Source of the DNA: an uncultured Poribacteria bacterium
GTDB taxonomy: Bacteria > Poribacteria > WGA-4E > WGA-3G
Assembly: GCA_958296135.2 (NCBI GenBank)
Contig: CATQHZ020000001.1
Location: forward strand, 3,232,001 to 3,296,000
Direction of reading: 5' to 3'
DNA: 64,000 nt
How positions within the stretch are numbered: position 1 is the stretch's first letter; the number at the start of each line of letters is the position of its first letter. Positions 18,086-37,004 of the stretch are shown one piece after another. The translations under genes were made by a program, and so were the position numbers. Under the pieces are notes generated by a model. It made no database searches. It was given only the letters and a program-made list of their open reading frames with translations, and was not told the DNA's origin.

Positions 18086-18639
18086 GCCATCTGATTGTGG
18101 AACTGTGGTGGCAATTCAATCATCGCCTTATTGAGGAGAACCGGCAGGGGATTGAGGTCGGACGCACGAGCGCGCAAACCTAGCCGCTGTGCTTCTAGCG
18201 GAATGGAGCCGCCACAAAACGCATCATAGATGGCAGGGCAGTGTTCACCGAGGTATCGCAACACTTCATCGGGGTTCGTAGGGGCCGCTTCACCTGAGTC
18301 GCGTGCGACAGCGCGCGCAATCTCGTAGCGTGCTTCTGCCAAGAGGCTTTCATCGTTGCTGTTCTTCCAGCGAATAAGCCGCCTCACGGTGCCGTGGAGC
18401 CGGTTGCGTTCTGCGCTCTGAGCCCCTTCGGTAGGAAATTCGTCTGGACATGACGAGGGCTCGTCCACCAAACTGGCGAAAATGCAAGCGCGGCAGGATG
18501 CAAGCGGGCGGCGCGCCCAATATCTATGCAGCGTTGAGGGATGCCCAAGTTTTGAGCCTCTTTTCTCGCTGGGTCCTTCTTGATTGATAGCCTCCAGAGG
18601 CAGGCTCACCTCTATGAGTTTCTTTCGGTGTGTGGACAT
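18079..18639 (-). pseudogene. Truncated DUF1156 adenine methyltransferase (N-terminal fragment)
   Basis: KKLIEVSLPLEAIN...GHPSTLHRYWARRPLA...GGSIPLEAQRLGL..ASDLNP; only 186 aa where the family is usually ~900 aa, and no DPPY domain follows. Confidence 0.8.
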
Positions 18640-21588: not shown

Positions 21589-22775
21589 GAGACTTTTTGG
21601 ACGCTTGCCCCATCACCCACAGTGCACAAGTAGATTTCAGGTTCAATGCCCGCCTGTTGGACGTATTCCCTCATGATGCGCGTGCGTAAGGTTTCCACCG
21701 CGTCCCGATGTGCGAGCGTGACGGTGCATCCGCCGAACCCCGCGCCTGTCATCCGCGTGCCGAGGACACCCGCGATGCCTCCCGCAATCTCCGTGAGCAA
21801 ATCCAATTCTTTGCAACTCACTTTGTAATCGTCGCGTAACCCGCGATGCGAGGCATTCATTAGATTTCCAAACGCAGGCAAGTCGCCCGCTTTCAGCTCA
21901 TCAATTGCCTGTTGCACGCGCGCGTTCTCTTCAAGCACGTACCGACATCTTTTTTGTGTCAATTCGGGCAGCTCTCCTTCATAATTTTTAAAATCGGTTA
22001 AGTTTACATCCCGAAGTGATGAAATGTCGGGAAACCATCTTTTGAGGATGCCCACCCCTTTTTCGCATTCGGCGCGCCGTTTGTTATATTCGGAAGCCGC
22101 GAGTTCCCGTTTCACCTTCGTATTGCAAATCACGATGACATGTTCCCCTAAATTGAGCGGAACGTGTGTGTGTGCCAATGAACGGCAATCGAGGAACAAC
22201 CCGTGGTCCGCCCGTCCAAAGAGGGAAATAGTCTGATCCATGATGCCACACTTCACGCCGATAAATTCGTGTTCGACGCGTTGACACAGTGTTGCAAGCC
22301 CCTTTTTGTCCATTTCTAAACCATTTGCGGTTAAAAATGCAAGTGCCGAGGAAACAGTCAGCGCGGCGGAGGAACTCAACCCGGCACCTATTGGGACATC
22401 TCCGGTGATGATGGCATCCATCCCGCATAACGTTTTGTCAGAGCGTTGTAGGAGTGTCGCCACGCCGACGAGATATTTACTCCACGTGGGAGCGGAAACC
22501 CACTTTTCGTCGCAGAGCATTGCGAGACTGAATTCATACCGGGCATCAACATCTAAGGCATGCAGAGTGACCTGTCTATCCTTGCGCGGCCGCGCGACGA
22601 TGTGAACATACTTATCGATTGCAACGGGAAACACATAGCCGTCGTTGTAATCTGTATGCTCGCCGATGAGGTTCACCCTACCGGGGGCAGATACGATGAA
22701 TTCAGGGGCTCCGCCGAAGAAGTTTTCGTATGTTCTGTCGTTCGCAAAGCGTTCGGAGGCGTGGGTTAGTGTCAT
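21585..22775 (-). CDS. galK: Galactokinase
   Basis: APGRVNLIGEHTDYN, PIGAGLSSSAA, CGIMDQ, RMTGAGFGGC. Confidence 0.97.
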   Translation of the reverse strand: MTLTHASERFANDRTYENFFGGAPEFIVSAPGRVNLIGEHTDYNDGYVFPVAIDKYVHIVARPRKDRQVTLHALDVDARYEFSLAMLCDEKWVSAPTWSKYLVGVATLLQRSDKTLCGMDAIITGDVPIGAGLSSSAALTVSSALAFLTANGLEMDKKGLATLCQRVEHEFIGVKCGIMDQTISLFGRADHGLFLDCRSLAHTHVPLNLGEHVIVICNTKVKRELAASEYNKRRAECEKGVGILKRWFPDISSLRDVNLTDFKNYEGELPELTQKRCRYVLEENARVQQAIDELKAGDLPAFGNLMNASHRGLRDDYKVSCKELDLLTEIAGGIAGVLGTRMTGAGFGGCTVTLAHRDAVETLRTRIMREYVQQAGIEPEIYLCTVGDGASVQKVS

Positions 22776-22833
22776 GTCGTACCTTTACGTAGAGCCGCCC
22801 TCGCCGTTGGCGATGTCTACGTTTTTGTGGTTA
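22731..22833 (-). repeat. 5'-leader element copy overlapping the galK start
   Basis: Matches the consensus hairpin GTCTTCGCC-gtt-GGCGAAGAC plus the TGTTCGCAAGGCGTTC block. Confidence 0.75.
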
Positions 22834-22969
22834 TTCTAGGTTATACCTTCCTTACGTTCCTTCTCTCCTTCTCTATAGAGGGAGCTATAGAAATCCGCTC
22901 CTATAAACATTGCACGCCTTAGCGGCGTTTTAAAGGAATGGCACTTTCCGCTCTTACGTTCCTTGGCGG

Positions 22970-23743
22970 TTACTGAAAAAACTTGAGGAGTTTCCCCAAG
23001 ACGCTGGGAAGCTCGCCCCGTGAAACATAACAATCCACGCTGATGTCGGATGCTGGACCGTTTTCTGACGTTTGCGCCAAGTGTTGTTCTTCAGGCGCGT
23101 GTAAAGCGGGTTGGAGCGTTGTGGCTCTTTTTCCGATTCGCGAGTGCTCAGCGATAACCAGTTCTCCGACAGGAAAATGCGTTGTGAGCGGCCCCACGTC
23201 TGTTTCTGTTAGCACGGTAATGTGCGGCAGCGATACCGCCGCGAGCCGCTCCATTTCCGCCGCCACGTATGCAGTTGCCGCAAATCCAAGCGGTAACTCT
23301 TGTGGTGCAGCGGGAATAGGCTTCCTTTGATTTGAAAACCTGTCTGTGGCGTACTTTGCACTGACGACGGTAATGAGCGGTAGCCCTTCCTTCACAGCGG
23401 TATCAGTGGCCGTTAAGAGTGCATCAAAGTGAACCCGCGTCGGTATCACATCAGAGCTCGCAATGAACAGACTGACCGGGTATCCAGCGAGAGTACCAGT
23501 GAGCGTTACCGCTGTATCGCCCATCGTAAACGCTGCATCCGTAGCGTCAAGCAAGTGTTGGCACCGTTTTTCAACGGAGAGCGGGAACAGGTGTCCGCAG
23601 TAGGCACAGACGTAGAAGTTGCGTTCAAGTTCGCCTCTGAAAACGAATTCGCTGCAGGCGGCGCACTTATGCCATAAACTGATGCTCTGTTCGGTTCTTT
23701 CGTCGTTCGCGAGGCGTTCGATAAAGGTAGTTGGTGCCATCAT
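22970..23743 (-). CDS. Degenerate AccD-like protein (zinc finger retained)
   Basis: LWHKCAACSEFVFRGELERNFYVCAYCGH matches the AccD zinc ribbon; GGSMG and SGGARMQEG are absent. Confidence 0.7.
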   Translation of the reverse strand: MMAPTTFIERLANDERTEQSISLWHKCAACSEFVFRGELERNFYVCAYCGHLFPLSVEKRCQHLLDATDAAFTMGDTAVTLTGTLAGYPVSLFIASSDVIPTRVHFDALLTATDTAVKEGLPLITVVSAKYATDRFSNQRKPIPAAPQELPLGFAATAYVAAEMERLAAVSLPHITVLTETDVGPLTTHFPVGELVIAEHSRIGKRATTLQPALHAPEEQHLAQTSENGPASDISVDCYVSRGELPSVLGKLLKFFQ

Positions 23744-23796
23744 ATCTCTCTGCGTAAGCCATCTTCGCCGTTGGCGAGGACTACGTTGTCGATGCT
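23694..23796 (-). repeat. 5'-leader element copy overlapping the AccD-like start
   Basis: CGTAAGCCATCTTCGCCGTTGGCGAGGACTACG; encodes MMAPTTFIERLAND. Confidence 0.75.
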
Positions 23797-23861
23797 AGAT
23801 TGATCGGCCACCGAGAGTCGCGCCGGGGGATAGGGGACGTGCTTCCATGCTCAGAAACCTC

Positions 23862-24206
23862 CTATAGAAAACTGGCTATCGCCTCCGCTTCGGTATCGTA
23901 CCGGTCGAAGATTGTCACCAGTTTTGCCATCACGATGAGGCTTCTGATGTTGCCGCCGAGGTTGAGCAGCACGATGCGTCCCTCATTCCGCTTGATAGTG
24001 GAATAGGAGGCAACGAGGATACCCAACCCGGAACTATCCATCATCTGGACACGTGCCATGTTCAGAATCAGATTGAGTTTGCCCTCCGGTGCAGTCTCAA
24101 GCTGTTTGTCGATGACCTTTTTCAGTGCCAGGGTGTCTGTCCCGATGATTTTCCCTTCAATATCTAAAATCGTCACGCTCCCTTTGTGGCGAATGTTGAC
24201 TTGCAT
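23862..24206 (-). CDS. STAS anti-sigma-factor antagonist (RsbV/SpoIIAA-like)
   Basis: MDSSGLGIL phosphorylation motif, 114 aa. Confidence 0.92.
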   Translation of the reverse strand: MQVNIRHKGSVTILDIEGKIIGTDTLALKKVIDKQLETAPEGKLNLILNMARVQMMDSSGLGILVASYSTIKRNEGRIVLLNLGGNIRSLIVMAKLVTIFDRYDTEAEAIASFL

Positions 24207-24278
24207 AGCGTCCTCCCTTCATGAGCGATCCGAGAAAGCCGTTCTCCCCACAGCGTCGGGTGGGGGAGACCTGTGCAT

Positions 24279-24710
24279 CTACCGGATTTCCTCAGGATCT
24301 GGTGTTTCCTTGTATTTCACCATTTTGATAATGGTGCCTTTGGCTTCAAAGTCCACTGAATCCATGCACTCCTCCATGAGGAAAATGCCTCTGCCGCTGC
24401 TTTTGAGCAAGTTGGCCGGGTCGAGCGGGTCGGCGACATCTTCGCGCGTGAATCCGGGGCCCTGGTCTTGGATGATAATCGTCAGTTTTTCCTCAGAGAG
24501 AATGAACTGAAAATCGGCTCGTTTGCCCAGGTCTTCTTTATTGCCGTGCTTGATTGCGTTTGTGCCCGCTTCAATGACAGCAAGATTCACCTGCATCTGG
24601 AGTTCTTCAGCGAAATTCATCTCGCGAAGAATCTCGGTGATGACAACATCCAGCAGGGAAACATGTTGCATTGAGCTTGGGAGAGAAAGGGTGATAACCT
24701 GCTCGCCCAC
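24279..24710 (-). CDS. Anti-sigma factor Ser kinase (RsbW-like)
   Basis: EAGTNAIKHGN, DQGPGF, SGRGIFLM (HATPase_c_2). Confidence 0.92.
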   Translation of the reverse strand: MGEQVITLSLPSSMQHVSLLDVVITEILREMNFAEELQMQVNLAVIEAGTNAIKHGNKEDLGKRADFQFILSEEKLTIIIQDQGPGFTREDVADPLDPANLLKSSGRGIFLMEECMDSVDFEAKGTIIKMVKYKETPDPEEIR

Positions 24711-24780
24711 GTTTCAGCTCCTTTTTTGGTTCAGCCTCATCAGATTTCTGAGGCAATGCTAAATGAAGTAACAGACATGC

Positions 24781-24862
24781 AAGTCTTGACAACGTCAAGA
24801 CGGCCTGATAAGTCAACGTCAGCTGCCGAGCAGCAGCTGAACAACCGCTAGGAATAACAAAA
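24781..24862. repeat. ~85-nt two-hairpin dispersed element
   Basis: Reverse-complement homolog at 33822-33906 and a partial copy at ~26190-26260, all sharing AACmACCGCTAGGAAy. Confidence 0.7.
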
Positions 24863-26110
24863 ATGCTTGATGACAACTAAGGCGCGGTCATCGCTCGGTT
24901 GCGTGCTACCGCTAAACCGCGCCAGGTCATTTTTAACAAGCTCACAGAACGCCGTGGATGTGAGTGTCCCACTGGCAGCGTGGTGTGCGAGACATGCGGC
25001 AAGCCGTTCTTCGCCGTAGAATACATTTGGCTGCCCCTCCGTCTCGGTGATGCCATCGGTATAGGAGACGAGAATATCGCCAGGGGCAAGGGTGCAGGTT
25101 TTCGTCGTAAACGTTGCTTCCTCAAAAGCCCCCACCAACATCCCGCATGTCTCTAAGAAATCAATTTTTCGCGTGTGATGCTTATAGTGCAATGGATAGC
25201 AATGCCCGCCGTTGGTATACGTGAAAGTTGAAGCCTCTGTATCCAATACGCCGTAAATCATCGTGGCAAAGAGTTCGACATCCGTGTCGCGCACGAGTAA
25301 GTCATTAATCCTTTTGAGAACCGATGCTGGCTCTCTGTAGGGATAGGCGGAAACCGTCAGGGCTTGCTCTTGACTGAGCGTCTCGTCACAGAGCAACCGT
25401 AACGCGGTGCGAATCATTACCATCACGAGTGCTGCCGGAATCCCACTCCCCTTAACGTCACCGATGACAATGCCGATGTGTTTCTCACTGAGTGGGATAA
25501 AATCGTAAAAATCGCCAGAGACAGAGGTTGAACTTTGCAATAACGTCGCGATATCAAACCCCGGTGGACTCGGTGCCTTCTCCGGTAACAATTTCCGCTG
25601 AATTGCTGCAGCCGCCTCAAGGTGTCCCGCGAGTTTTTCAACGCCTTCTTCACTGAACCCGTCGCCCATCGCCTGCATGAGCGGATTGATGTATTTTATG
25701 GGACGGGTTCTTCCCAAGACTGTCTCAACCCGTGCGGTAACTTCCCGCAAATCGAACGGTTTCGTGATATAGTCGTCGGCACCTGTATCCAGGCCGCGCA
25801 ATTTATCTTCTGTTTGCCCGCGCGCCGTGAGCAGAATGACAGGAACCGTTTTCGTCCGCTCGTCCTCCCGGAGTTCTCTGAGGACTTGGAAGCCGTCTTT
25901 ATGCGGCATCATGACATCGAGAAGAACCAGATCTGGGACGTTTGCCTGCGCACGCCGCACACCGCTAGTCCCATCGTTAGCCGTGCGCACGTTAAAGCCA
26001 TCGGATTCCAAACTTATCTTGAGCAGTTCAACGATATCAATATCGTCGTCTATAACCAAAATCGTTTCTGCTGTTGTTCGCAATACGTTCGGAGACGTTG
26101 GTTGGTGCAT
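24848..26110 (-). CDS. Response regulator-PP2C (SpoIIE/RsbU-type) phosphatase fusion
   Basis: REC domain (VIDDD, LLDVMMP, DDYITKPF) plus SGDFYDF, GDVKGSG, YTDGITE, DD; start at ATG 26110. Confidence 0.93.
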   Translation of the reverse strand: MHQPTSPNVLRTTAETILVIDDDIDIVELLKISLESDGFNVRTANDGTSGVRRAQANVPDLVLLDVMMPHKDGFQVLRELREDERTKTVPVILLTARGQTEDKLRGLDTGADDYITKPFDLREVTARVETVLGRTRPIKYINPLMQAMGDGFSEEGVEKLAGHLEAAAAIQRKLLPEKAPSPPGFDIATLLQSSTSVSGDFYDFIPLSEKHIGIVIGDVKGSGIPAALVMVMIRTALRLLCDETLSQEQALTVSAYPYREPASVLKRINDLLVRDTDVELFATMIYGVLDTEASTFTYTNGGHCYPLHYKHHTRKIDFLETCGMLVGAFEEATFTTKTCTLAPGDILVSYTDGITETEGQPNVFYGEERLAACLAHHAASGTLTSTAFCELVKNDLARFSGSTQPSDDRALVVIKHFCYS

Positions 26111-26168
26111 CGCCGTTCCTTTACGTAATCTGTCTTCGCCGTTGGAGAAGACTACATTTTTGGTGCTA
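26066..26168 (-). repeat. 5'-leader element copy overlapping the PP2C gene start
   Basis: TGTTGTTCGCAATACGTTCGG...TTTACGTAATCTGTCTTCGCCGTTGGAGAAGACTAC. Confidence 0.75.
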
Positions 26169-26307
26169 CGTTTTATTTTACCAAGGCATGCAAGAAAAGA
26201 CAAGGTTTTTACGGACAACCTGATCAGAAGCAGCCAAACCACCGCTAGGAACGACGAAAGTTGTCAAGTTGGGTTCAGGCGATACCAACCCATAGTTTTC
26301 GTGGTGA

Positions 26308-28683
26308 TTAGGCGAACGGGATAAAGAACTGGAAATTGCTGCCCTGTCCATTATCGCCCGCGTCCACCCATAATTTTCCGTGGTGCGCCTCAACTATCGC
26401 GGCTGCAATGCCGAGCCCTAACCCTGTCCCCCCTTGCTGCCGGGTTTGGACATTTCCGAGTTGGTGGAATCTGTCAAACACCTTTGCCCGTTCCTCCGGC
26501 GGAATGCCGGGGCCGGTGTCAATAATTTCCACATGCAGTCGGGGTGAGCCCTCTGTTGCATCCATGGCTGATATTTTGACGGTTATCCTACCTTGATACG
26601 GCGTAAATTTGATAGCATTGCCGATGAGGTTGATAAACACTTGTCCAATCCGGTCTGCGTCGCCAATCATCATTGGCAGATTGCGTTGCACTTTCAGAAA
26701 CAGCGTGATTGCCTTTTCATCGGCTTGCGGCCGAAGTTCCTCGATACGCTGTTTCGCGATTTGCGCGACGTGAATCTGCTCCTGCTTCATCTCAATGCGT
26801 CCCGCTTCAATGCGCGAAACGTCAAGGAGCTCATTAATGAGCGCGGCGAGCCGTTTTGATTGACGATGTGCGCGGCTCAGGCTCTCATACTGCTTTTCGT
26901 TAATCGCACCCGTCTTTCCATCAAGGATGAGCGAAATAAATCCGATGATAGAGGTAAGCGGTGTGCGCAGTTCATGCGAGACAAGGGAGACGAACTCCGA
27001 CTTCATCCTATCGATTTCATATTCATGTGTGATGTCATCAAAAACATACACGGTGCCGGCTACGTTGTGGCTCTCATCAGAAAATTGACTTGCCACGATG
27101 CGGAGGATTCGGCTTTCATTCACTTTGGCGATGACAGTCTGGTGCTGCGTCGCCTCCCGCTGCGCTGCGGATAGCACGTTGAAATCCGCCGTGAGCGTGA
27201 TGGGTGGCTGCGTCGATGTTGATTGTTTCCGCCAATACATCTTGCCGGTGTCTGTGTCTACCGATGCGAAATTTTCATAGTCGCGCGTGTCGCCGAGATT
27301 AAACAGCATTTCCGCAACCGGATTGACATACAACACGCGTTCGTTTTCGTCAACAACAATCAGTCCTTCGCCGAGGTTCTCAACAATCGCTGTGAGTTTC
27401 TTTTGCTCTCTCGTGAGTTCTTCAACGGCAGTTTTCAGGTTTTGCCGCATGTCGTTGAATTCTTCAACAAGGATACCGACTTCGGTGTCAGAGTCGACAG
27501 CTGTATCAGAAGCGCGTTGCAAGTTGCGCGCGACATCTCCTTCAAATTCGCCATGCCCGATACTATGTGCGGCATGCGCGATTTGCATGATGGGTTTCGT
27601 AATCCGCTGCGCAACCCACCATGCAATAAAGATAACGATAACCGCAGACACAAGCGTCAGATAAAAAATATATCTGTTCAGTCTTTCTACTGCGGCATAA
27701 GCGGCTGCGACAGGACGTGAGACGAAAACCATCCAGTTGCTAAAATTTTGTTGCGCCTTCCACGGTGCAGAAGGTGCAGGTTGTGTTCTGGCCCATCCGT
27801 AGACGCGCTTCTCTCCAAAGTTATCGTCTTCTCCTTCTGATTCATACCCGTAATACTTTCCGATGTCGCCTCTTTTTGCCTCTACGATTGCAGCAGTGGC
27901 GGCATCGCTCATCTCGTAACCGCCGCGTGCGTATCCGCTCCCCGGCGAGGCGGCGATAATCGTGCCAGAGCCGGTTGTCAAAAAGGTGTACGTCTCTTCG
28001 GTATCCGGTCGCGATTCCACCAGATTCGTCAATTCCGGTAGCAATAACTCGGTTTTCAGCACACCGACAACTATCTTCCCGTTTCTGATTGGCAGTGCCA
28101 TCTGTAGGACATGCACGTCTCGCGCGTCATCATAAGTGACATCGGCGACGAGAGGGTAACCGATGCCATTGTTGTAGGCATTTTGCCACCAGTCTTCGTT
28201 GTTGACGCGATGTGGCATCCGTTTTTTCGTGTCGTAATCCACCCCCGGGTCGTTTGAGCGCAGCACGTATCCGGCTGCGTTCGTAATCGTTACCTCACTG
28301 CCATAACCTGCGTACGCCTCAAGCAGTCGGATGCTATCTTCTAAGCGCGCCCACACTGTCAAAAAGACTACCTGTTTTCTATTCGCAGTGTTGGAGCGGA
28401 TGACAGCTGCCGTGAGATTCGGTAGTTCGCCGTGGATATTTGCCATCTTCTCGGCGATAGCAAGATCTGCGCGGTAGAGTTTCTCTTCTGCTAATAGCAC
28501 GAGGCTGTCGCCAACGCTGCCTTTCAAGGCGTTCTCACCGAGCACTTTGATAGTGAGTGAGACAGCGAACAGGGGCATCAGTGAAACGAATAGGAACAGG
28601 ATAATCTGCTGTCCGCGTAAGCCTATTTTAAACGGTGAGCGTTTCGCCGATTGTTCGCCTTTCATAGCCCACCTCGCGCCCAT
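26308..28683 (-). CDS. Sensor histidine kinase (Cache-like, HAMP, PAS, HisKA, HATPase)
   Basis: Two TMs, VSHELRTPLTSI, NLIGNAIKFT, DTGPGI, GGTGLGL. Confidence 0.93.
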   Translation of the reverse strand: MGARWAMKGEQSAKRSPFKIGLRGQQIILFLFVSLMPLFAVSLTIKVLGENALKGSVGDSLVLLAEEKLYRADLAIAEKMANIHGELPNLTAAVIRSNTANRKQVVFLTVWARLEDSIRLLEAYAGYGSEVTITNAAGYVLRSNDPGVDYDTKKRMPHRVNNEDWWQNAYNNGIGYPLVADVTYDDARDVHVLQMALPIRNGKIVVGVLKTELLLPELTNLVESRPDTEETYTFLTTGSGTIIAASPGSGYARGGYEMSDAATAAIVEAKRGDIGKYYGYESEGEDDNFGEKRVYGWARTQPAPSAPWKAQQNFSNWMVFVSRPVAAAYAAVERLNRYIFYLTLVSAVIVIFIAWWVAQRITKPIMQIAHAAHSIGHGEFEGDVARNLQRASDTAVDSDTEVGILVEEFNDMRQNLKTAVEELTREQKKLTAIVENLGEGLIVVDENERVLYVNPVAEMLFNLGDTRDYENFASVDTDTGKMYWRKQSTSTQPPITLTADFNVLSAAQREATQHQTVIAKVNESRILRIVASQFSDESHNVAGTVYVFDDITHEYEIDRMKSEFVSLVSHELRTPLTSIIGFISLILDGKTGAINEKQYESLSRAHRQSKRLAALINELLDVSRIEAGRIEMKQEQIHVAQIAKQRIEELRPQADEKAITLFLKVQRNLPMMIGDADRIGQVFINLIGNAIKFTPYQGRITVKISAMDATEGSPRLHVEIIDTGPGIPPEERAKVFDRFHQLGNVQTRQQGGTGLGLGIAAAIVEAHHGKLWVDAGDNGQGSNFQFFIPFA

Positions 28684-28689
28684 TGCGCG

Positions 28690-29028
28690 TTAGGAAAAAG
28701 CGGAAATCGCGCTTTCCTCTGTATCGTAGATTTCAAGGACAGACGCGAGGTGTGTCACCTCCAAGATGTCCCGAACCGCCTGCTGTGGGTTGAGCAAAAC
28801 GAGTTTCCCACCGGATTTTTGGAAGCCCTGAAGGGTCAGAATAATGGCACCGAGGGCACTGCTATCAATCAGCGGGACATTCATGAGCTCAACGACGAGG
28901 TTTCTGTTCCCTTTTGCCAACTGTCGTTCCATCGCTTCCTGAAAGGTATCCGCGGTGCTGCCGATGATTTTCCCCTCAATGTGAAGGATAGAGACATTTT
29001 GCGCACGCGTTGTTGTATCAAAATTCAT
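28690..29028 (-). CDS. STAS anti-sigma-factor antagonist
   Basis: IDSSALGAI motif; paralog of 23862-24206. Confidence 0.9.
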   Translation of the reverse strand: MNFDTTTRAQNVSILHIEGKIIGSTADTFQEAMERQLAKGNRNLVVELMNVPLIDSSALGAIILTLQGFQKSGGKLVLLNPQQAVRDILEVTHLASVLEIYDTEESAISAFS

Positions 29029-29058
29029 AGCGTTTTTTTCACACTCCTCTCTTCAGAA

Positions 29059-29733: not shown

Positions 29734-29795
29734 CTATTAACATTTTGGCGGACCGATATAGAAATCCGCCCTTACACGCAAGGGAACTTTCCTTT

Positions 29796-31712
29796 TCAGA
29801 CGTTCCTTTTCTGTTGGTGCAGCATCACCGTCAAAATAGAGATGTCTGCCGGGGAAACGCCGGGCAGACGGGAAGCTTGTCCGATAGATGCAGGGCGAAT
29901 TCTTGCGAGTTTCTCGCGTGCCTCTATCTTTAACCCCGGAACGTCGGCGTAGTCAAATGCTTCCGGAATCGGGAAATTTTCCAATTTCTTAAACTGTTGG
30001 ATTTGTCGCTGCTGCCGTTGGATGTACCCATGGTATTTAATCTGGATTTCCACCTGTTCCTTAACAGCAGGTGGTAGGGCATCCTGTGGTGGCGCGAGTC
30101 GTGCGATCTGTTCGTAGCGAAGCGCGGGACGTTTCAGGAGTTCTGCCAACGACGTAGGCTGCTTGAGTTGCCCAGTCTCAAGAATATTCGCGAGCACCGC
30201 GCTACTGAGACGCTCAGGAGTCGGCTTCAGCACGGTTTGCTGCAGCCGCGCGCGTTCGCTCTGGATTTGCGCGGCTTTCGTCTGGAACCGGCGATAGGCA
30301 CCGTCATCAACGAGTCCTATCTGTCTTCCGAGTTCGGTGAGCCGCAAATCAGCGTTGTCTTCCCGTAATGTCAACCGATACTCGGCACGCGAGGTGAACA
30401 TACGGTAAGGTTCACGGATGTCCCTTGAAACCAGATCATCGATGAGCACGGCGATGTATGCCTGGGCTCTATCCAGAACAAACGGTTCCTTTCGCTGCAC
30501 CTTTAAGGCGGCATTGATACCAGCCATCAGGCCCTGCGCAGCGGCTTCTTCGTAACCGGTGGTGCCATTGAGTTGTCCTGCGAAGTAGAGGTTTTCGACT
30601 TGCTTCGTTTCAAGCGTGGGCTTGAGCTGGGTCGCGGGGGCGAAGTCGTACTCAACAGCATACCCGAACCGCATGATTTCGGCGTTCTCTAATCCGCTGA
30701 TGCTATGCACCATGGCTACTTGCACGTCTTCGGGCAAACTGGCAGAGATACCGTTGAGGTAAATTTCATCGGTGTTGCGTCCCTCAGGTTCAACGAAGAC
30801 CTGGTGTGCAGTCTTCTCGGCGAACCGGACGACTTTGTCCTCAATTGAGGGGCAATACCGGGGGCCAATACCGACGATGCGGCCGCTATACATTGCGGAA
30901 CGGTGAAGATTCTCCCGAATCAGTTGGTGCGTCTTCTCATTGGTATGCGTGAGATAACAAGGTAACTGCGGCTGCGTAATGCGCTCTGTTGAAAATGAGA
31001 AGGGCCCCGGGTCTTCATCGCCGGGCTGAATGTCCATGACGCTGAAATCGACGGTGTGCGCATTGACGCGCGGCGGCGTGCCCGTTTTGAGCCGGCCAAT
31101 CTCAAAGCCGAGACTTAAAAAACTCTCGGAAAGTTTCTCTGCCGCGGATTCCCCTGCGCGGCCGGCACTGTAGGATATGTCCCCAATGTGAATTAGGCCT
31201 TTCAGGAAGGTGCCTGTCGTGAGAATCACTGTCTCGGCTAGATAGGCGGTTTTCGTCTGGCTCAGAATGCCGAGGCAGCGTCCATCTTCGACGAGCAATT
31301 CTTCCACCAATACCTGCTTGATGTCAAGCCGTTCTTGCGTCTCTAGGACGCGCTTCATTTCATCCTGATACGCCTTTTTGTCAGCCTGTGCGCGGCTCGC
31401 TCGCACCGCGGGGCCCTTTTTGGTATTCAAGCGTCGGAATTGAATCCCGGTCTTGTCAATATTTTTTGCCATCTCGCCACCGAGCGCGTCTATCTCTTTG
31501 ACGAGATGCCCCTTCGCCAACCCACCGATGGCAGGGTTGCAAGACATCTTGGCGATAGTATCCAGGTTGATAGTCACAACGAGCGTTTCACAGCCCATGC
31601 GCGCGGCGGCAAGAGCGGCTTCACAGCCCGCATGGCCAGCACCGACAACGATGACATCGTAACGTTTTTCGTATTTCGCAATGCGTTGAGTTAGGGTTGT
31701 TTGTGTAATCAT
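29796..31712 (-). CDS. mnmG: tRNA uridine-5-carboxymethylaminomethyl modification enzyme
   Basis: YDVIVVGAGHAGCEAA, MSCNPAIGG, GPRYCPSIEDK, GTTGYEEAAAQG. Confidence 0.98.
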   Translation of the reverse strand: MITQTTLTQRIAKYEKRYDVIVVGAGHAGCEAALAAARMGCETLVVTINLDTIAKMSCNPAIGGLAKGHLVKEIDALGGEMAKNIDKTGIQFRRLNTKKGPAVRASRAQADKKAYQDEMKRVLETQERLDIKQVLVEELLVEDGRCLGILSQTKTAYLAETVILTTGTFLKGLIHIGDISYSAGRAGESAAEKLSESFLSLGFEIGRLKTGTPPRVNAHTVDFSVMDIQPGDEDPGPFSFSTERITQPQLPCYLTHTNEKTHQLIRENLHRSAMYSGRIVGIGPRYCPSIEDKVVRFAEKTAHQVFVEPEGRNTDEIYLNGISASLPEDVQVAMVHSISGLENAEIMRFGYAVEYDFAPATQLKPTLETKQVENLYFAGQLNGTTGYEEAAAQGLMAGINAALKVQRKEPFVLDRAQAYIAVLIDDLVSRDIREPYRMFTSRAEYRLTLREDNADLRLTELGRQIGLVDDGAYRRFQTKAAQIQSERARLQQTVLKPTPERLSSAVLANILETGQLKQPTSLAELLKRPALRYEQIARLAPPQDALPPAVKEQVEIQIKYHGYIQRQQRQIQQFKKLENFPIPEAFDYADVPGLKIEAREKLARIRPASIGQASRLPGVSPADISILTVMLHQQKRNV

Positions 31713-31762
31713 GTCTGGCTACGTTACCTGTTTTCGCCGTTGGCAATGTCTACGTTTCTGAT
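31666..31762 (-). repeat. 5'-leader element copy overlapping the mnmG start
   Basis: TTTCGCAATGCGTT...TACGTTACCTGTTTTCGCCGTTGGCAATGTCTACGTTTCTG. Confidence 0.7.
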
Positions 31763-31763
31763 T

Positions 31764-32780
31764 TCAGAGGCCTTGATAAATGACGCTGAGCACGAGAGTT
31801 CCAACAATCTCTAGGCTCTTCGGGCTACATTTGTCCACCGTATCTTCAAGCGTGTGCCAATACGGATAAGTGAAGTCTATCACATTAACCATCGGGATGC
31901 CGGCCTGAATCAATGGGACATGGTCATCCATGATTGCGGGTCCGATGCGGTGTTGAAATACGCCTAATCCGAGTTCACGAGCGCGATGCCACAAGGCCTC
32001 GGCGAATTCGCGATTGGCGTTCCAAGAAAACCGTTCTATCGGTAGTTGCAAATCTTTGTCGCCTACCATGTCTAACAAGATGCCGTAGTCGGGCTTCCAC
32101 CGCTGGTAGATGCGCGTTGTCAGGGCGTTGGCGAAGAACCGTGAGCCGATGAACATATTGTCGGTGGTTCTGCCATAATCTTCGCCATCGAAAAGGACAA
32201 TAATAATCCGACGTGGCGGCGGGTATGCCTTTAAAATTCGCGCGATTTCCAAGAGGACAGCAACTCCGGACGCGCCATCGTTTGCCCCCAAAATAGGTTT
32301 ATTCCGATTCTCTGGGGCTGCGTCCCGGTCTGCCATGGGGCGCGTATCCCAATGTGCCGCTAATAGCAGCGTTTCACTGCCTACTTTTCCGAACTCCGCC
32401 AAAATGTTGTTGAGATGCAACGTTGCGGTGTCTGTCTTAAACTCGTGCGGCTGCAACACGACGGTATCGGCGTATTTCTGGAGTTCGGCGAATAGATACG
32501 CCTGCGTTTTTCGATGCGCGGCGGTACCGGGAGGTCTCGGGCCGAATTGGCACTGTTTTTCCAAATAGGCAAAGGCACGCGGGGCATCAAATGTTGGCGA
32601 ACCTCCAGCAGTCCGCGGGGTATAATTCGCGGCGTTTTCCCCGTCGCCAATCGAATCTGCGCAAGCCAACAAACAGGTGCAGGCAAAAAACGTGACGCAG
32701 CATAACAGGAACCGAACAGTGCCTTTTCTGTTATATCTAGGAACCCTCGCGACGCAGAAAGCGTTCTTACCGATTTTCAT
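31764..32780 (-). CDS. M28 family peptidase / glutaminyl cyclase-like lipoprotein
   Basis: AHWDTRP, GANDGASG, FDGED, LLDMVG, DDHVP, YWHT; start may lie downstream of 32780. Confidence 0.9.
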   Translation of the reverse strand: MKIGKNAFCVARVPRYNRKGTVRFLLCCVTFFACTCLLACADSIGDGENAANYTPRTAGGSPTFDAPRAFAYLEKQCQFGPRPPGTAAHRKTQAYLFAELQKYADTVVLQPHEFKTDTATLHLNNILAEFGKVGSETLLLAAHWDTRPMADRDAAPENRNKPILGANDGASGVAVLLEIARILKAYPPPRRIIIVLFDGEDYGRTTDNMFIGSRFFANALTTRIYQRWKPDYGILLDMVGDKDLQLPIERFSWNANREFAEALWHRARELGLGVFQHRIGPAIMDDHVPLIQAGIPMVNVIDFTYPYWHTLEDTVDKCSPKSLEIVGTLVLSVIYQGL

Positions 32781-32786
32781 GAGCCT

Positions 32787-33437
32787 TTATACCTCGCGTC
32801 TTCCCTCCAACGCTTTCGCCAGCGTCACCTCGTCTATGTATTCCAAATCGCCGCCGAAGGGGATACCGTATGCGATACGGCTGACTGTGATGTCAAAGGT
32901 TTCTAAGTGTTGCGTGAGATAGAGCGCAGTTGCCTGTCCCTCCGTCGTCAAATTCGTCGCGAGAATAATCTCTTTGACATCGTTGAGCCGCTGGAAAAGC
33001 GAATTAATTCTGAGCTCATCCGGACCGACACCATCTAGCGGTGACAGCACGCCGCCGAGCACATGGTATAACCCTTTATAGCCGTTCGTGCGTTCAATAG
33101 CCCACAGATCATCGGATTCTTCGACGACGCAGATAACCTGCTTGTCGCGGCGTGAATTGGTGCAGATGTGGCAGGGGTTTGCATCCGTAATCGCGCCACA
33201 GACGTTGCAGTAAGAGAGGAGCCGTTTCACCTCGGCAATAGCTTTTGCGATTTGGGCAGTCTCCGGTTCAGGCAACTTTAGCATAAAAAACGCTAGCCGT
33301 TGCGCGGTTTTCTGCCCAATTGTCGGCAATTTTTGGAGTTGGGTGATGAGCTGTGCCAACGGCCGCGGGTATTCCATTTTCTTGTTGTTCGCAAGGCGTT
33401 CAATAACGTGCGTTGGGGCAATAACGTTCGTTGCCAT
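32787..33437 (-). CDS. recR: Recombination mediator RecR
   Basis: LPTIGQKTAQRLAF, C4 zinc finger, YHVLGGVLSPLDG; canonical start probably ATG 33377, with an in-frame element-derived extension to 33437. Confidence 0.96.
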   Translation of the reverse strand: MATNVIAPTHVIERLANNKKMEYPRPLAQLITQLQKLPTIGQKTAQRLAFFMLKLPEPETAQIAKAIAEVKRLLSYCNVCGAITDANPCHICTNSRRDKQVICVVEESDDLWAIERTNGYKGLYHVLGGVLSPLDGVGPDELRINSLFQRLNDVKEIILATNLTTEGQATALYLTQHLETFDITVSRIAYGIPFGGDLEYIDEVTLAKALEGRREV

Positions 33438-33471
33438 CGAGCCGTCTTCGCCGTTGGCGAAGAATACTTTC
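33378..33471 (-). repeat. 5'-leader element copy upstream of and in frame with recR
   Basis: TTGTTGTTCGCAAGGCGTTC...GAGCCGTCTTCGCCGTTGGCGAAGAATAC. Confidence 0.8.
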
Positions 33472-33512
33472 TTGGAGCTGCGCGCTTTGAAACTGCGCCT
33501 ACGGAAGAGGGC

Positions 33513-33821
33513 TTACGGGAGTCCCGGAATTTTCACGCCGCCGGTGAGTTTGCTCATTTCCACGGAAATCAACTCCTGCGATTCCCGGAGTGCCTCGTTG
33601 ATGGCGGCAACAACCAGGTCTTCCAACATCTCGGTATCTTCCGGATCGACAGCTTCAGGGGCGATACGGAGTGAGACGACTTCTTGTTGGCCGTTAACAA
33701 CGGCAGTTACCATGCCGCCGCCGACGGTTGCCTCAACGGTGCGATTTGCGAGTTCTTCTCGGATCTCCAGCATCCGCTTTTGCATCTGCTGTGCCTGTTT
33801 CATCAGGTCGTTCATTTTCAT
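33513..33821 (-). CDS. ybaB: YbaB/EbfC nucleoid-associated protein
   Basis: LMKQAQQMQ, GGGMV, EMLEDLVVAAINEA; lies between dnaX and recR. Confidence 0.96.
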   Translation of the reverse strand: MKMNDLMKQAQQMQKRMLEIREELANRTVEATVGGGMVTAVVNGQQEVVSLRIAPEAVDPEDTEMLEDLVVAAINEALRESQELISVEMSKLTGGVKIPGLP

Positions 33822-34062
33822 ATCTTTCGTTGTTCCTAGCGGTTGTTCAGCTGCTATGCGGCAGTGAAGGTTGTCTTATCAGGCAGCATTGAGATTGTCA
33901 ATGCTTACGGTTCTAGTGTTACAATTGTAACACGTAAACTACACGGCGAGGTTTTTTGTATGGCGCAAGGCGTGATAACCGACTTTCTAGGCTTGAACCT
34001 CAGAAGTATCTTCACACCGCTTTGCAAACGACAGAAAACCTCGCGCTACGGTTTTAGTACAG

Positions 34063-35868
34063 TTATTGCGTTTCTAAAATTTTCGCGTCAAAAAGGTTCA
34101 GCGCGGCTCGGAGCCGCGGATCGTCTTCCGCCGCCATCTTACGGACGAGGGGTGTCATCTTCTGCACATCGCGTTTATCCGATACACCTGCATTTGCAGT
34201 ACCCTGTGCATCGGGAAGTGCCGCCTTATGCGGGACAATGTCTAACTTTGCTAATTCCACCTCAATAGGTTGCCCCACTAACTCGCTCAACGTCTTAGCG
34301 ATGAGCTGCTTGTCTTCATCGACAGCCATAGAAAAATACGTTGGTGAACACGCAATTTTGACAACGTTTGTGCCGTTGACAGAAGGCACCGCGCCGCTTA
34401 GCAACCCATGTTTTAGTTTCATCGGAAGTTGAGCCTTCACTTCTTCCCAAAAAGTGCCGATTTCACTGAGGGGGCGATAGGAATTTCCTGACATCTCCGC
34501 CGGAGGCTGCTGCGGTTCGGGGCGTGTTACAGGTTCACTCCTGACGGAGGCACGCGAGGAGGTTTCAAAACGGCGTGCATCTCCATGCCCAACCCGCGGC
34601 ACGCTCGCTGGCTGCGACTGCTCACGCCGAAACGCCGGTTGTGGGGCATCCGTCGTACGGCTATCAGGAAGCAGTGCAGCTGGCGCACCACCCGAATCTA
34701 ACTTTTGTTCCAACGCCGACAATTTTCCGACGATTTCCTGAAGTTGAATGCCCTCCTCAAGGGAGTCCAGTTGAATGAGTGCGCCCTCTAATTGAAGTTG
34801 CGCGTAACCATACTGTTTGATATCCCGGCTGGTGTACATCAAAATTTTGATAATCCGCGACAGCCGAGGAACAGACATCTGCTCAGCCTTCTGCTTGAGT
34901 TCAGGCAGATCGGATTTGGGACTTTGGATTAATTCAACGAGATTGCTATCAATCGCCAAGAGCCGCAGGTCGCGAAAATAGACAATTAATTGATGTAGGC
35001 ACTGCGTCAAATCCGTTCCCTGTTTCACCAATTTGTTCAGCGTTGCAAGCCCCTCGGCGAGGTTGCGTTCGGCAATCGCCTTGGTGAGCTCACCGAGCAG
35101 GAAACTGGAGCCGAGACCGAGCGTCTGCTCAACGGTTTCAACGGTCACGTTCTTTCCTGCGGAGGATACAAGGCGTTCTAGCAGGTTTTCGGCATCCCGC
35201 AGACACCCTTCGGATTGCCGTGTGATGAGCGACAGCACGTCTAAATCCGCCGAAATCTCCTCCGCTTTGGCAATCAACGTGAGCCGCTCAATGATCTTCT
35301 CATCTTCCAAGTGCCGGAAATCAAAATCTTGGCAGCGGGAGGTGATCGTCTTCGGAATTTTGGCATGCTCGGTTGTTGCCATGATGAAAATGACATGCGG
35401 CGGGGGTTCCTCCAGCGTTTTGAGTAAGGCGTTGAAGGCTTCAGTCGTGAGCATGTGTGCTTCATCGATGATGTAGATTTTGTAGGTGCAGTTGGCGGGC
35501 GCGAGTTTGACGTTTTCCCGCAGTTCCCGAATCGGATCGATGCCGCGATTAGAGGCGGCATCTGTCTCTATGACATCAAAAGATTTCCCTTGCGAGATGT
35601 CAATGCAGCGCTCACAGCCGTTGCAAGGTTCTGCTGTAGGTGACTTGTCAAATTCAGTCTCATGAATGCGATTCGGACAGTTGACAGCTTTGGCAAAAAT
35701 GCGCGCAACCGTGGTCTTCCCCGTGCCTCGGGGACCCCAGAAGAGATAGGCGTGCCCAACGCGTTCAGACAGAATCTGATTTTCTAGCGTTGTGGTAACG
35801 TGCTGCTGTCCGACAACGTCGCCGAAGTTTTGAGGGCGCCATTTTTGTGCAAGAACTTCGTATGCCAT
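34063..35868 (-). CDS. dnaX: DNA polymerase III subunit gamma/tau
   Basis: KWRPQNF, GPRGTGKTT, DAASNRG, IDEAHML, SRCQ. Confidence 0.97.
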   Translation of the reverse strand: MAYEVLAQKWRPQNFGDVVGQQHVTTTLENQILSERVGHAYLFWGPRGTGKTTVARIFAKAVNCPNRIHETEFDKSPTAEPCNGCERCIDISQGKSFDVIETDAASNRGIDPIRELRENVKLAPANCTYKIYIIDEAHMLTTEAFNALLKTLEEPPPHVIFIMATTEHAKIPKTITSRCQDFDFRHLEDEKIIERLTLIAKAEEISADLDVLSLITRQSEGCLRDAENLLERLVSSAGKNVTVETVEQTLGLGSSFLLGELTKAIAERNLAEGLATLNKLVKQGTDLTQCLHQLIVYFRDLRLLAIDSNLVELIQSPKSDLPELKQKAEQMSVPRLSRIIKILMYTSRDIKQYGYAQLQLEGALIQLDSLEEGIQLQEIVGKLSALEQKLDSGGAPAALLPDSRTTDAPQPAFRREQSQPASVPRVGHGDARRFETSSRASVRSEPVTRPEPQQPPAEMSGNSYRPLSEIGTFWEEVKAQLPMKLKHGLLSGAVPSVNGTNVVKIACSPTYFSMAVDEDKQLIAKTLSELVGQPIEVELAKLDIVPHKAALPDAQGTANAGVSDKRDVQKMTPLVRKMAAEDDPRLRAALNLFDAKILETQ

Positions 35869-35880
35869 GAGCGTATCCGG

Positions 35881-36045
35881 TTTTCTGTTGTTTCGCCAAG
35901 CGTTCGGTTAGGTTTATCTTGGCACTGCTGTCATTCACAAGGCCTTCGTTTAGGCACAAGGCGTTCGTTTAGGGGGGTTGGGGGCAATCACGTCTGCCTG
36001 CGTCAGCCGTCATCGACGTTGCCGATGACTACGTTTCTGAATATG
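35881..36045 (-). repeat. Extended 5'-leader element copy upstream of dnaX
   Basis: TTTTCTGTTGTTTCGCCAAGCGTTCG, internally repeated CAAGGCsTTCGTTTAGG, and hairpin GTCATCGACGTTGCCGATGACTACG. Confidence 0.7.
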
Positions 36046-36153
36046 CTGACGCGCGGGGTGCTGTAGCTAAGTTTTGACTCTCAGCGGAGTTTGCCCGGGC
36101 GGATATAGAAATCCGACACTACGTTTACCGGGCATCTCCAACGTTCAGAAACA

Positions 36154-36424
36154 TGGCTATGAACCCAGAGTTGACAGGCTCTTCCGGGCGTTGCCCGCGT
36201 CGTTAACTCAGGCCAGGCTACCTTGCGTCACACGAGAAGCCTATTTACCGCTGCTTCCTTCCGGACCTGACGGGGTTCAACAGGTTCTCGTTGCTCAAGA
36301 CCCAACCTTCAACACCACGTGCGCGGGACAGTCCCCACAAAAACAGGCCGCATACCGGGGGTTCCGTTCTGCTATAGCGGATTGCAGATACAGGGCACCG
36401 CTACCTCCCCACCTATCATAGCCA
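36154..36424 (-). ncRNA. ffs: Large bacterial SRP RNA (with Alu domain)
   Basis: TCAGGTCCGGAAGGAAGCAGC helix-8 motif; 5' GGGGAGGTAGCGGTGCCCTGT as in Bacillus scRNA; complementary ends TGGCTATGA/TCATAGCCA; ~271 nt, upstream of dnaX. Confidence 0.95.
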
Positions 36425-36579
36425 AGACGTAAGATTGCGCGCTTCCAATGCGCGACTACCGAGTGAAGTTGCGCATGGCAGATCGGACAGGCGAAACATT
36501 CGCGCCAGCGTTTACTATGGGGTTGCCTGCAAAGTTCGACCGCGTCTAAATGACGGGCACCTGCAGGCAACCCGCGAAG

Positions 36580-36669
36580 CGGAGAGAGTGGGATTCGAAC
36601 CCACGGTACTGCACAACAGCACACATGATTTCCAATCATGCCAGTTCAACCAGACTCCTGCATCTCTCC
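36580..36669 (-). tRNA. tRNA-Ser(GGA)
   Basis: Cloverleaf with anticodon arm CATGA-TTGGAAA-TCATG, long variable arm, GGTTCGAATCC; CCA not encoded. Confidence 0.95.
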
Positions 36670-36689
36670 CAAAGATATATTTTCATAGA

Positions 36690-36762
36690 TGGAGCAGACG
36701 GGATTTGAACCCGTGACCTCGTCCGTGCGAGGGACGCACTCTCCCAGCTGAGCTACTGCCCC
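36690..36762 (-). tRNA. tRNA-Ala(CGC)
   Basis: GGGGCAGTAGCTCAG..., anticodon arm CGTCC-CTCGCAC-GGACG, G3:U70 pair. Confidence 0.95.
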
Positions 36763-36811
36763 AAGGTGCCGTAAAGGCTACCGAAATTGAGTAACAAATG
36801 AATCGAAAAAG

Positions 36812-36896
36812 CGGAGAGAGTGGGATTCGAACCCACGGTGACTTGCGCCACAACAGTTTTCGAGACTGTCCAGTTCAACCGCTCCTGCATCTCTCC
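36812..36896 (-). tRNA. tRNA-Ser(CGA)
   Basis: Anticodon arm ACAGT-CTCGAAA-ACTGT, variable arm. Confidence 0.95.
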
Positions 36897-36904
36897 TTAT
36901 GAAA

Positions 36905-36984
36905 TTTTCTGTCGCTCGCAATGCATTTGATAACGTGCGTTGGAGCAATAACGTGCATTGGCGAAGACTCGCTTTTTGATGCTA
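36905..36984 (-). repeat. Internally deleted 5'-leader element copy between tadA and tRNA-Ser(CGA)
   Basis: ATAACGTGCGTTGGAGCAATAACGT matches the recR copy; ends TTGGCGAAGAC..TTTTTGATGCTA. Confidence 0.7.
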
Positions 36985-37004
36985 TTGCTATAGCCATTGC
37001 ACGC

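Follow-up and report, generated by a model that had tools for sequence, protein, structure and literature searches.

What kind of element can precede genes as unrelated as galK, mnmG, recR, dnaX and a tRNA gene, and carry within it what looks like the start codon of several of them? The question arises from a stretch of 64,000 nucleotides (hereafter, the window) of an uncultured Poribacteria bacterium (assembly GCA_958296135.2, contig CATQHZ020000001.1, positions 3,232,001 to 3,296,000 of the forward strand). There, an initial annotation had noticed seven copies of a short sequence, each abutting the 5' end of a gene, and had taken it for a mobile leader domesticated as a translation-initiation module. 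We find that this sequence is a repeat of ~105 nt with a characteristic anatomy, that it has moved, that it is oriented with the genes that follow it, that it has replaced the N-termini of some of them, and that it is enriched in ATG codons lying in their frame. It is probably a non-autonomous selfish repeat of one Poribacteria-like lineage, persisting because its layout allows genes to withstand an insertion at their boundaries or into a permissive loop.

The window belongs to the 5.0-Mb contig C1, the chromosome of genome G000, and we compared it with two genomes of the same genus, G001 (one contig) and G002 (440 kb). A repeat search within the window places six of the listed sites in one family (D3: 22731, 23696, 26067, 31665, 33378, and 36905) and links a seventh, at 35986, to it via family D10; the seven sequences can be aligned over ~105 nt and score 49.4-102.8 bits with a covariance model (CM) built from 24 copies, which together confirm them as real (two marginal CM matches in the window, with E 0.055 and E 0.47, were left uncounted). 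Rfam at gathering thresholds has no family for this repeat and recovered from the window only a signal recognition particle (SRP) RNA and six tRNAs. An nhmmer profile seeded with five window copies and iterated over the whole assembly grew from 140 to approximately 249 matches, all on C1 (146 on the minus and 103 on the plus strand), of which 193 are near full length, 8 consist of 5' parts only and 27 of 3' parts only. Copies form 12 clusters on the chromosome, four of them inverted pairs in divergent regions. The repeat also occurs in tandem arrays of three and four 5'-truncated units, which start from the hairpin loop and have a period of ~83 nt (C1:481134-481403 and 3334780-3335118, the latter directly before a gene that, by reading its sequence only, we call NAD-kinase-like), and its 3' box alone (27 nt) is repeated in tandem at C1:106527. 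None of the other contigs carries the element: C2 (143,886 nt, 36.8% G+C versus 54.4% for the chromosome), C3 (67%) and C4 (60%) may be plasmids, phage or mis-binned contigs.

The mobility proposed by the initial annotation is directly visible, since synteny of the window is conserved in G001 and G002, and G000 carries the element at its galK, AccD-like and dnaX sites, which are empty in both sister genomes. Over the chromosome, 24 of the 249 loci of G000 could be paired in G002 and 17 of these pairs were inspected (copies 82, 134, 223, 229, 241, 244, and 246 were not). The copy or its middle is absent from G002 in 12 of the 17: six retain a native ATG 0-22 nt behind the A-run that closes the element (copies 45, 135, 160, 191, 207, and the dnaX copy), three have a replaced N-terminus (the AccD-like gene, galK, and the gene of copy 115), two are in-frame inserts within genes (a C25 peptidase and a HisH-like open reading frame, ORF), and one stands before a tRNA (the tRNA-Ser copy of the window is copy 184, whose middle is absent in G002). 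Several insertions removed 9-36 nt of native DNA, as estimated by subtraction of gap lengths, including motifs of Shine-Dalgarno (SD) type; the empty sites of copies 45, 135, and 160 in G002 have an SD-like GAGGA, AGGAG or GGAGG ahead of the ATG. Two genes overlap (ATGA) at copy 135 in the sister genome, and the insertion in G000 took the last 13 codons of the upstream one.

The consensus of the unit, read 5' to 3', is TAGCACCAGAAAC-GTAG-TCATCGAC-AAC-GTCGATGA-CGGCTTACGTAGAGAAACGTCATTGCACCAGAAACCCTTACC-GAACGCATTGCGAAAGACAAAAAA. It falls into four segments: a lead-in rich in A, then GTAG heading a 9-bp hairpin whose loop is AAC, then a middle that varies between copies, and lastly a conserved 3' box. 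This box (GAACGCnTTGCG..AC.AAAAA) is the best conserved part, with 1.5-2 bits per position, and closes in the A-run, behind which conservation ends sharply, the flanks of 171 copies being devoid of any motif. The hairpin is real and shows covariation: 90.4% of the cells in 24 copies are paired, versus 85.1% in shuffles (none of 500 reached as high a value), and four pairs covary, among them pair 27-33, for which 11 copies have AU and 10 have CG. A set of 61 copies leaves this picture unchanged, and the outer ACGT/ACGT helix shows no covariation. With its GTAG head, 9-bp stem and 3-nt loop, the 5' half has the form of an imperfect palindrome of the repetitive extragenic palindrome (REP) type. 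Read by eye, the consensus has frame 0 closed in the 5' half by TAG, TGA and TAG, frame +2 closed by the TAG of GTAG, and frame +1 as the only one open across the entire unit; from position ~49 onwards none of the three frames is interrupted, and ATG, GTG or TTG is readily present in the 3' half. The tail contains no SD, which is found as an SD-like motif in 59% of the 1678 ATG genes lacking a nearby element.

Such a layout would buffer the insertion of the element into its host genome, with stops in front, three open frames with starts behind, and an A-rich tract at the junction, as the A-run puts an SD-less, A-rich stretch directly ahead of whatever comes next. A sense copy landing just ahead of a start codon would leave the native ATG in use behind the A-run. 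Where the landing cuts off the first codons of a gene, a start borne by the element may take over and yield a new N-terminal peptide, and a landing within a gene in frame +1 would add ~33 residues to the protein.

The window genes illustrate the first two of these outcomes. Their identities are as initially annotated: Pfam recognizes GalK, Zn_ribbon_ACC (AccD-like), Response_reg plus SpoIIE (REC-PP2C), GIDA (MnmG), RecR, and DNA_pol3 (DnaX), and a tRNA-Ser gene is located at 36811-36896. In G001 and G002 the AccD-like gene opens with an uninterrupted AGGAGG-N8-ATG METQPLLSSVKDTEQSISLWHKC. In G000, the native SD and ATG persist and are followed by 17 codons and a TAG at the 5' edge of the element (23795-23848, minus strand, coordinates derived from the alignment of the three genomes), and the gene resumes with MMAPTTFIERLANDERTEQSISLWHKC from the element ATG. 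The full-length copy (23690-23799, minus; CM 102.8 bits) is an insertion within the 5' coding region, apparently rescued by the element start, from which ORF 22970-23743 is read. The full-length galK copy (22725-22835, minus; CM 96.7 bits) contains, at 22775, the ATG that opens the galK ORF (21585-22775), and the N-terminus of GalK is MTLTHASERFANDRTYENFFGGAP in G000 versus MNQHASCNAHTQEFHRIFGGAP in G001 and G002, where a 2-nt spacer is found at the site. The mnmG copy (31659-31768, minus; CM 80.7 bits) has a decayed hairpin, and its ATG at 31712, preceded by an in-frame TAG three codons ahead, opens mnmG; the protein starts with MITQTTLTQRIAKYEKRYDVIVVG (longer: MITQTTLTQRIAKYEKRYD) in G000, with MTTASKYEKHYD in G002, and, at six loci from other genera of this family, with MNTYQKHYD or M(M)NTYHKHYD. 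Reading these three genes confirms that no further ATG, GTG or TTG occurs from the element ATG to the first conserved motif, and the Pfam domains in the galK, mnmG and AccD-like products start at residues 15, 19 and 24, respectively (Zn_ribbon_ACC from residue 24).

The REC-PP2C copy (26061-26170, minus; full; CM 97.0 bits) has its 3' half in common between G000 and G002, and the start must fall within this half, at the frame +1 ATG or the box TTG; Response_reg begins at residue 61 of the longest ORF. The gene of copy 115, with an N-terminus replaced or extended, likewise has its sole candidate start codon inside the element. The recR copy (33372-33482, minus; full; CM 93.5 bits) stands directly before recR, and G002 has there only the 3' half of the element, devoid of the hairpin, with an identical AAA-ATG-GAA-TAC-CCG start. 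RecR probably starts at the ATG flush with the A-run (33377-33375), and the longer ORF used by the initial annotation is probably not translated; the resulting MEYPRPLAQLI resembles what we take to be the usual RecR N-terminus. The dnaX copy (35881-36047, minus) comprises a body at 35937-36047 (CM 79.4 bits) and a duplicated 3' box that reaches 35881; the native ATG (35868) is retained 13 nt behind it and is identical in G001 and G002. The idea that the element donates start codons is thus borne out for the AccD-like gene, galK, mnmG, REC-PP2C and the gene of copy 115, with their sole candidate start inside it, but not for RecR, which most probably uses an ATG behind it, and DnaX, which retains its native one there. 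Comparison with orthologues lacking the element divides the genes in the same way, as GalK, MnmG and the AccD-like protein begin differently there, whereas RecR and DnaX have the same ATG in genomes without the hairpin or the element.

In G002, the REC-PP2C copy (L021 16097-16171) is missing exactly the hairpin (TAGCATCAAAAACG|GATTACGTAAAGG), with the 5' lead-in and the 3' half intact, which points either to a precise deletion of the palindrome or to a hairpin that is a separately mobile module.

Over the whole chromosome, an ATG is available only within the element in 33 copies, only a GTG or TTG within it in 15 more, and an ATG both within it and directly behind the A-run in 21. Among the 54 copies fused to a gene without an ATG right behind the A-run, 54% have an ATG in the 3' half in the frame of the gene, versus 4% per frame in the other two frames (Fisher p 3e-13, on counts back-calculated from rounded shares); in 88 unfused copies the share is 14% per frame. 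This excess is as expected from selection for a working start and indirectly suggests that the element start codons, whose actual use we infer, are under selection. Start donation looks like an incidental by-product affecting roughly 48-54 genes, with ~82 others retaining their own ATG behind the A-run. A common N-terminal tag, as had been proposed, does not exist because fusion to the genes occurs in every one of the three frames (frame 0 for 40, frame +1 for 50, and frame +2 for 23), and the genes hence begin with differing peptides.

The co-orientation with downstream genes seen in the window extends to the chromosome. By approximate gene calls, the gene 3' of the element is on the same strand for 198 of the 249 copies (binomial p 1e-21), with 171 copies in sense tandem, 46 in antisense tandem, 27 in divergent and 5 in convergent contexts, for a genome with 2871 tandem, 420 divergent and 419 convergent ones. 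Measures independent of gene calling agree: ORFs of 100 aa or longer exit the element in the sense direction in 174 of 239 copies and in the antisense direction in 42, versus 46% at 5000 random points, and an ORF opens at most 90 nt upstream in 97 of the 239, versus 8.6% of random points (Fisher p 1e-37). In the 440 kb of G002, a sense ORF is found at 9 of 10 matches, versus 44% at random points. The ORFs leave the element in all three frames (61, 82, and 41 copies), and called starts cluster on the model at positions 52-60, at 86 (the box TTG), and at 100-105, directly behind the A-run; for 82 of the 249 copies, an ATG-started ORF of at least 80 codons begins 0-22 nt behind the A-run. Replication direction was considered as the origin of the strand bias and rejected, as the GC skew is weak and the share of plus-strand genes varies between 0.33 and 0.55 per 250-kb bin without a replichore switch. 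The 146/103 strand split of the element parallels that of the genes (2138/1573).

Within the window, the seven listed copies are all on the minus strand, as stated initially, but the list was incomplete, and with the additional copies not all are co-oriented. A weak one (33817-33923, minus; CM 25.6 bits, E 0.00045; copy 229 of the nhmmer set, in which an ATG falls on model position 102) precedes the ybaB-like ORF 33513-33821. Two partial ones lie on the plus strand, antisense to the local genes: the 5' two-thirds of a unit at 18009-18109 (CM 42.6 bits), at the junction of ORFs 18079-18639 and 16952-18082, and the 3' half of a unit at 16926-17003 (CM 28.5 bits), which overlaps the 3' end of ORF 16952-18082. 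Two of the seven entries also needed correction, as the position 35881 given for the dnaX copy is the end of the duplicated box, and the copy at 36905 is rearranged in its 5' part (36899-36986, minus; CM 49.4 bits); the A-run of the latter stops 8 nt short of the tRNA-Ser(CGA) 5' end.

Antisense copies also have a preferred place. In 41 copies, the 3' end of an antisense gene lies in the element or at its 3' end, and in 37 of the 46 antisense tandem copies the stop codon of the preceding gene is found about -37 to +11 nt from the end of the A-run. Four copies adjoin tRNAs, two ending 5-8 nt before the tRNA 5' end and two flush with the tRNA 3' end on the opposite strand. The hairpin end is loosely placed, at a median of ~80 nt from its neighbour, often with other GTAG-headed REPs beside it. 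On its antisense strand, the consensus presents the hairpin followed by CUACGUUUUUG, and in the fold of the galK copy UUUUU comes directly behind the stem. A hairpin with a U-run resembles an intrinsic terminator, and an antisense copy would then survive mainly just behind stop codons, which may also account for the sense bias. Runs of A or T as an insertion target do not explain the boundary placement because native DNA behind stop codons is not T-rich (a T run of at least 4 within 10 nt behind the stop occurs in 4% of 1701 genes); an A-run target fares no better, as about half of the inspected empty sites have no A-run before the ATG in the alignments that we read.

A further class of copies lies within genes. 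An ORF is open for more than 140 nt upstream of the element in 48 copies, 28 of them in frame +1, and overall 37-48 of the 249 copies (about 15-19%) are located within ORFs. In frame +1, the unit encodes ~33 residues, (N)VVIDNVDDGLRRE.SLHQQPLSNALR..K. In-frame copies are found in RecN (SMC_N), an Omp85/POTRA protein, a Peptidase_C25 protein of 1781 aa, a POR/TPP oxidoreductase of 1295 aa (at least three copies), a VCA0040-like membrane protein, shikimate dehydrogenase, and a HisH-like ORF; the inserts of the Peptidase_C25 protein and of the HisH-like ORF are absent in their G002 orthologues.

Could the element nevertheless serve its genes, as the initial annotation supposed? The hairpin, the box and the A-run would then form a 5' module recognized by some factor, setting initiation or co-regulating ~200 genes, with the peptide as a tag. 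Consistent with this, the box keeps its 1.5-2 bits per position next to a variable middle, the version AACGCyTTGCGAA recurs together with the placement before the ATG in the diverged sister family of genus g5, the position of the element with respect to the ATG is tightly set, and the SD-less tail differs from the SD-like motifs prevailing at genes without the element and at the empty sites of G002. However, three frames give three different peptides, the orthologues in the sister genomes work without the element, and the genes with a copy are functionally diverse (galK, mnmG, recR, dnaX, recN, aroE, bamA, and the NAD-kinase-like gene, the last named by reading). A regulon-like leader fails because of the copies that are antisense behind stops (about 46-51), within ORFs (about 37-48), or at tRNAs (four). 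All these copies fit a selfish repeat better, and we regard a domesticated module as rather improbable.

The flush placement could also be accounted for by a portable promoter, with transcription starting from the A-run and giving rise to leaderless mRNAs and short tRNA leaders. The 82 copies with an ATG 0-22 nt behind the A-run, the two that end 5-8 nt ahead of tRNA 5' ends, and the tail of the g5 units (AATAATTAAAAA-ATG), in which a TATAAT-like hexamer is plausibly spaced, would suit it. Against it, the box of the G000 genus (g1) has no sigma-70-like -10 and -35 at the right spacing, the window contains 11 promoter-like sites versus 11.4 in shuffles, and the genome does have canonical TTGACA-N17/18-TATTAT promoters, some of them downstream of copies. 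Moreover, the start codon would lie upstream of the supposed transcription start in 48-54 copies, and antisense copies would direct transcription into gene 3' ends. A sigma-70 promoter within the 3' box is thus unsupported by the window scan, and we give the promoter explanation very little credence.

Directly downstream of the A-run of several copies (C1:2052685, 4956712, and 4124060), we observed textbook sigma-70 promoters (TTGACA-N17/18-TATTAT or a similar sequence), as though the A-run provided them with an upstream A-tract.

We return to the selfish repeat, against which several observations weigh. The end formed by the A-run, and not the hairpin end, abuts gene boundaries in both orientations and lies next to four tRNA ends, a regularity that random insertion plus selection alone leaves unaccounted for. 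Conservation of the 3' box, which is common to the g5 sister family, goes far beyond what a passive passenger needs, and the box may have a function of its own. The antisense terminator activity finds little echo in the window, where a simple terminator scan flagged one of the seven copies (the recR copy only) and the hairpins are not clearly more stable than shuffles (z +1.2 to -1.8). The genome-wide counts based on genes come from a crude caller (3711 genes, 85% coding, longest-ORF starts) and are approximate. Finally, a transposase, terminal inverted repeats and target-site duplications were all looked for without success: on inspection, the 5' end of the consensus (CCAGAAACGTAG) bears no relation to the reverse complement of its 3' end (TTTTTTGTCTTTCGC), the internal hairpin being the only inverted repeat in the unit; the inspected filled/empty junctions show no duplication, nor do the flanks of the 171 copies show a motif; and two pairs of 5'-only and 3' parts lying within 8 kb in G000, examined as remains of an autonomous parent, have no evident transposase.

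The placement of the A-run end could alternatively reflect active targeting of the element, this end leading, to start codons, stop codons and tRNA ends by some machinery; the 3' box would be the recognition site of this machinery or of a host factor marking gene ends. In a g5 sample (the 20 best-scoring copies, from ~12 distinct loci), the rule of the A-run end holds as well, with 9 sense, 10 antisense and 1 ambiguous copies. Flush placement of one particular end at gene boundaries lies outside what we know of small bacterial repeats. We consider such targeting unlikely, though worth stating for its consequences: sense landings would turn SD-led initiation into A-rich, SD-less initiation, rewiring the starts of more than 100 genes, and would seed new N-terminal and internal peptides, by a boundary-seeking transposition without terminal inverted repeats, target-site duplications or a linked transposase.

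How the repeat moves is a separate matter, on which the hairpin gives a hint. GTAG (GT[AG]G) is the conserved head of REPs, imperfect palindromes of about 20-40 nt, and the element may be a REP derivative mobilized in trans by a REP-associated tyrosine transposase (RAYT, a Y1 HUH transposase), a route that we put forward tentatively and that is compatible with a selfish repeat. Apart from the GTAG-headed hairpin, the window holds at least three other GTAG-headed palindrome families, two Y1_Tnp genes exist in the genome, other REPs are often next to the hairpin end of the element (the recR copy and copies 45, 87, 115, and 207), and the REC-PP2C copy of G002 lacks exactly the hairpin, as if this were a separable unit. 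Yet, the repeats that flank the two RAYT genes belong to other REP families, and neither Y1_Tnp gene of the genome was found flanked by this element; ~65 nt of conserved non-palindromic sequence travel with the hairpin; and the copies are single, many of them intragenic, instead of forming inverted doublets.

The other palindromic families with GTAG/CTAC ends in the window (D4, D8, D11-D13, D16-D18) are distributed over positions 2138-58029, for example at 12521-13078, 51208-51239, and 11881-11919. Two of these REP-like families flank the Y1_Tnp genes, at G000:C1:4791065-4791610 and around 3734478-3734807.

The relation to REPs and their doublets (REPINs) is thus partial. The element shares with them a short GTAG-headed imperfect palindrome, a copy number in the hundreds, and a genome that contains RAYT-like Y1 genes and other REP families. 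It differs by RAYT genes that it does not flank, by the additional 3' part, and by single, orientation-biased copies at the 5' instead of the 3' ends of genes; extragenic inverted doublets are not the rule among the 249 copies, which are singlets with only 4 of 12 clusters inverted and with ORFs spanning 37-48 of them.

Two other classes of small repeats are closer in behaviour, MIRUs (mycobacterial interspersed repetitive units), reportedly described by Supply et al. 1997 (Mol Microbiol 26:991), and the Rickettsia palindromic elements (RPEs), said to go back to Ogata et al. 2000 (Science 290:347). The likeness to each can be stated from the copies themselves: 171 of the 217 copies in tandem contexts are sense, with starts clustering in or just behind the element, a placement of MIRU type, and the in-frame insertions into conserved protein-coding genes, with a peptide added, are of RPE type. 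According to PMC12548453, MIRUs are short repeats, seemingly mobile, that lie between co-oriented genes in the orientation of these and at times stand in tandem. Their insertion at start codons is said to impair expression little, and the small ORF that they carry is coupled to the gene through an overlap of -4 (ATGA). As far as that description goes, our element resembles them in being oriented with genes, located between co-oriented ones and at start codons, and grouped in clusters. It departs from them, by description and not by sequence, in its fusion to the gene or the A-run before the ATG, its hairpin, its intragenic copies, and its unrelated lineage. The -4 coupling in particular was examined and rejected, ATGA being present in 32 of 82 copies (39%) versus a genome baseline of 1030 of 2429 (42%), which is no enrichment. 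RPEs insert in frame in many Rickettsia ORFs, according to PMC10969869. Within the limits of that account, the likeness concerns palindrome-bearing repeats of ~100-150 bp in frame in unrelated housekeeping genes, adding a conserved peptide and leaving the ORF intact; the differences are that only about 15-19% of the copies lie within ORFs here, most being at gene starts in another lineage, and that start-codon donation and a strong sense bias do not figure in what that text says of RPEs. Miniature inverted-repeat transposable elements and the Correia, ERIC and BOX repeats, treated in part in the same review (PMC10969869), are comparable in being non-autonomous, ~100 nt long, dispersed, and able to fuse with host ORFs and to alter expression signals; for the present element we found no terminal inverted repeats, target-site duplication or related insertion sequence. 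Among the papers listed for Poribacteria palindromic repeats (judged by title and opening of the abstract, supplementary files aside) and for start-codon or in-frame miniature inverted-repeats, we found no description of such a repeat for this lineage.

The family is specific to one lineage of the phylum-level group. A DNA search with a single copy gave matches in 5 of 31 genomes and detected the element only in the two other genomes of its own genus, but the suggestion of a genus-restricted family was overturned by the CM, which has matches in 38 of 101 genomes sampled across the group: 1 of 1 in g1 (G000 excluded), 31 of 32 in g5, which belongs to the same family as g1, and scattered single matches in 2 of 30 genomes of g2, 1 of 1 of g3, and 2 of 4 of g8. 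The repeat family is that of two genera, g1 and g5, of one family. The g5 units follow the same plan with another stem (GCCTGC..GCAGGC) and the tail AATTAAAAA. As for the host lineage, the closest named relative, by GalK, is a Candidatus Poribacteria metagenome-assembled genome, at 63% identity.

The window contains some other repeated sequences. Between 36157 and 37997, a large SRP RNA (36157-36421) is accompanied by six tRNAs, four of which are tRNA-Ser with differing anticodons (the tRNA-Ser genes make up families D5 and D15). Three tandem units of ~655-658 nt with 67-79% identity (D1, D2) at 42122-44050 are probably a repeated domain in a large gene. At 53848-54616, six repeats spaced by 123-186 nt, with the core ..GATGGCGGC..ACNTGG (family D9), resemble what we presume to be BNR/Asp-box repeats (S-x-D-G-G-x-T-W).

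The probable selfish repeat offers a comparative example of how a small element can replace the translation start and first residues of housekeeping genes; in the AccD-like gene, the former start can still be recognized, now orphaned. Automatic start-codon calls and predicted N-termini in these genomes would be systematically affected, the longest RecR ORF, which is probably too long, being a case in point. More generally, one family from an uncultivated lineage joins the MIRU-like habit of insertion at starts with the RPE-like habit of in-frame insertion. To these two behaviours it adds start donation, for which the orphaned native start provides direct evidence.

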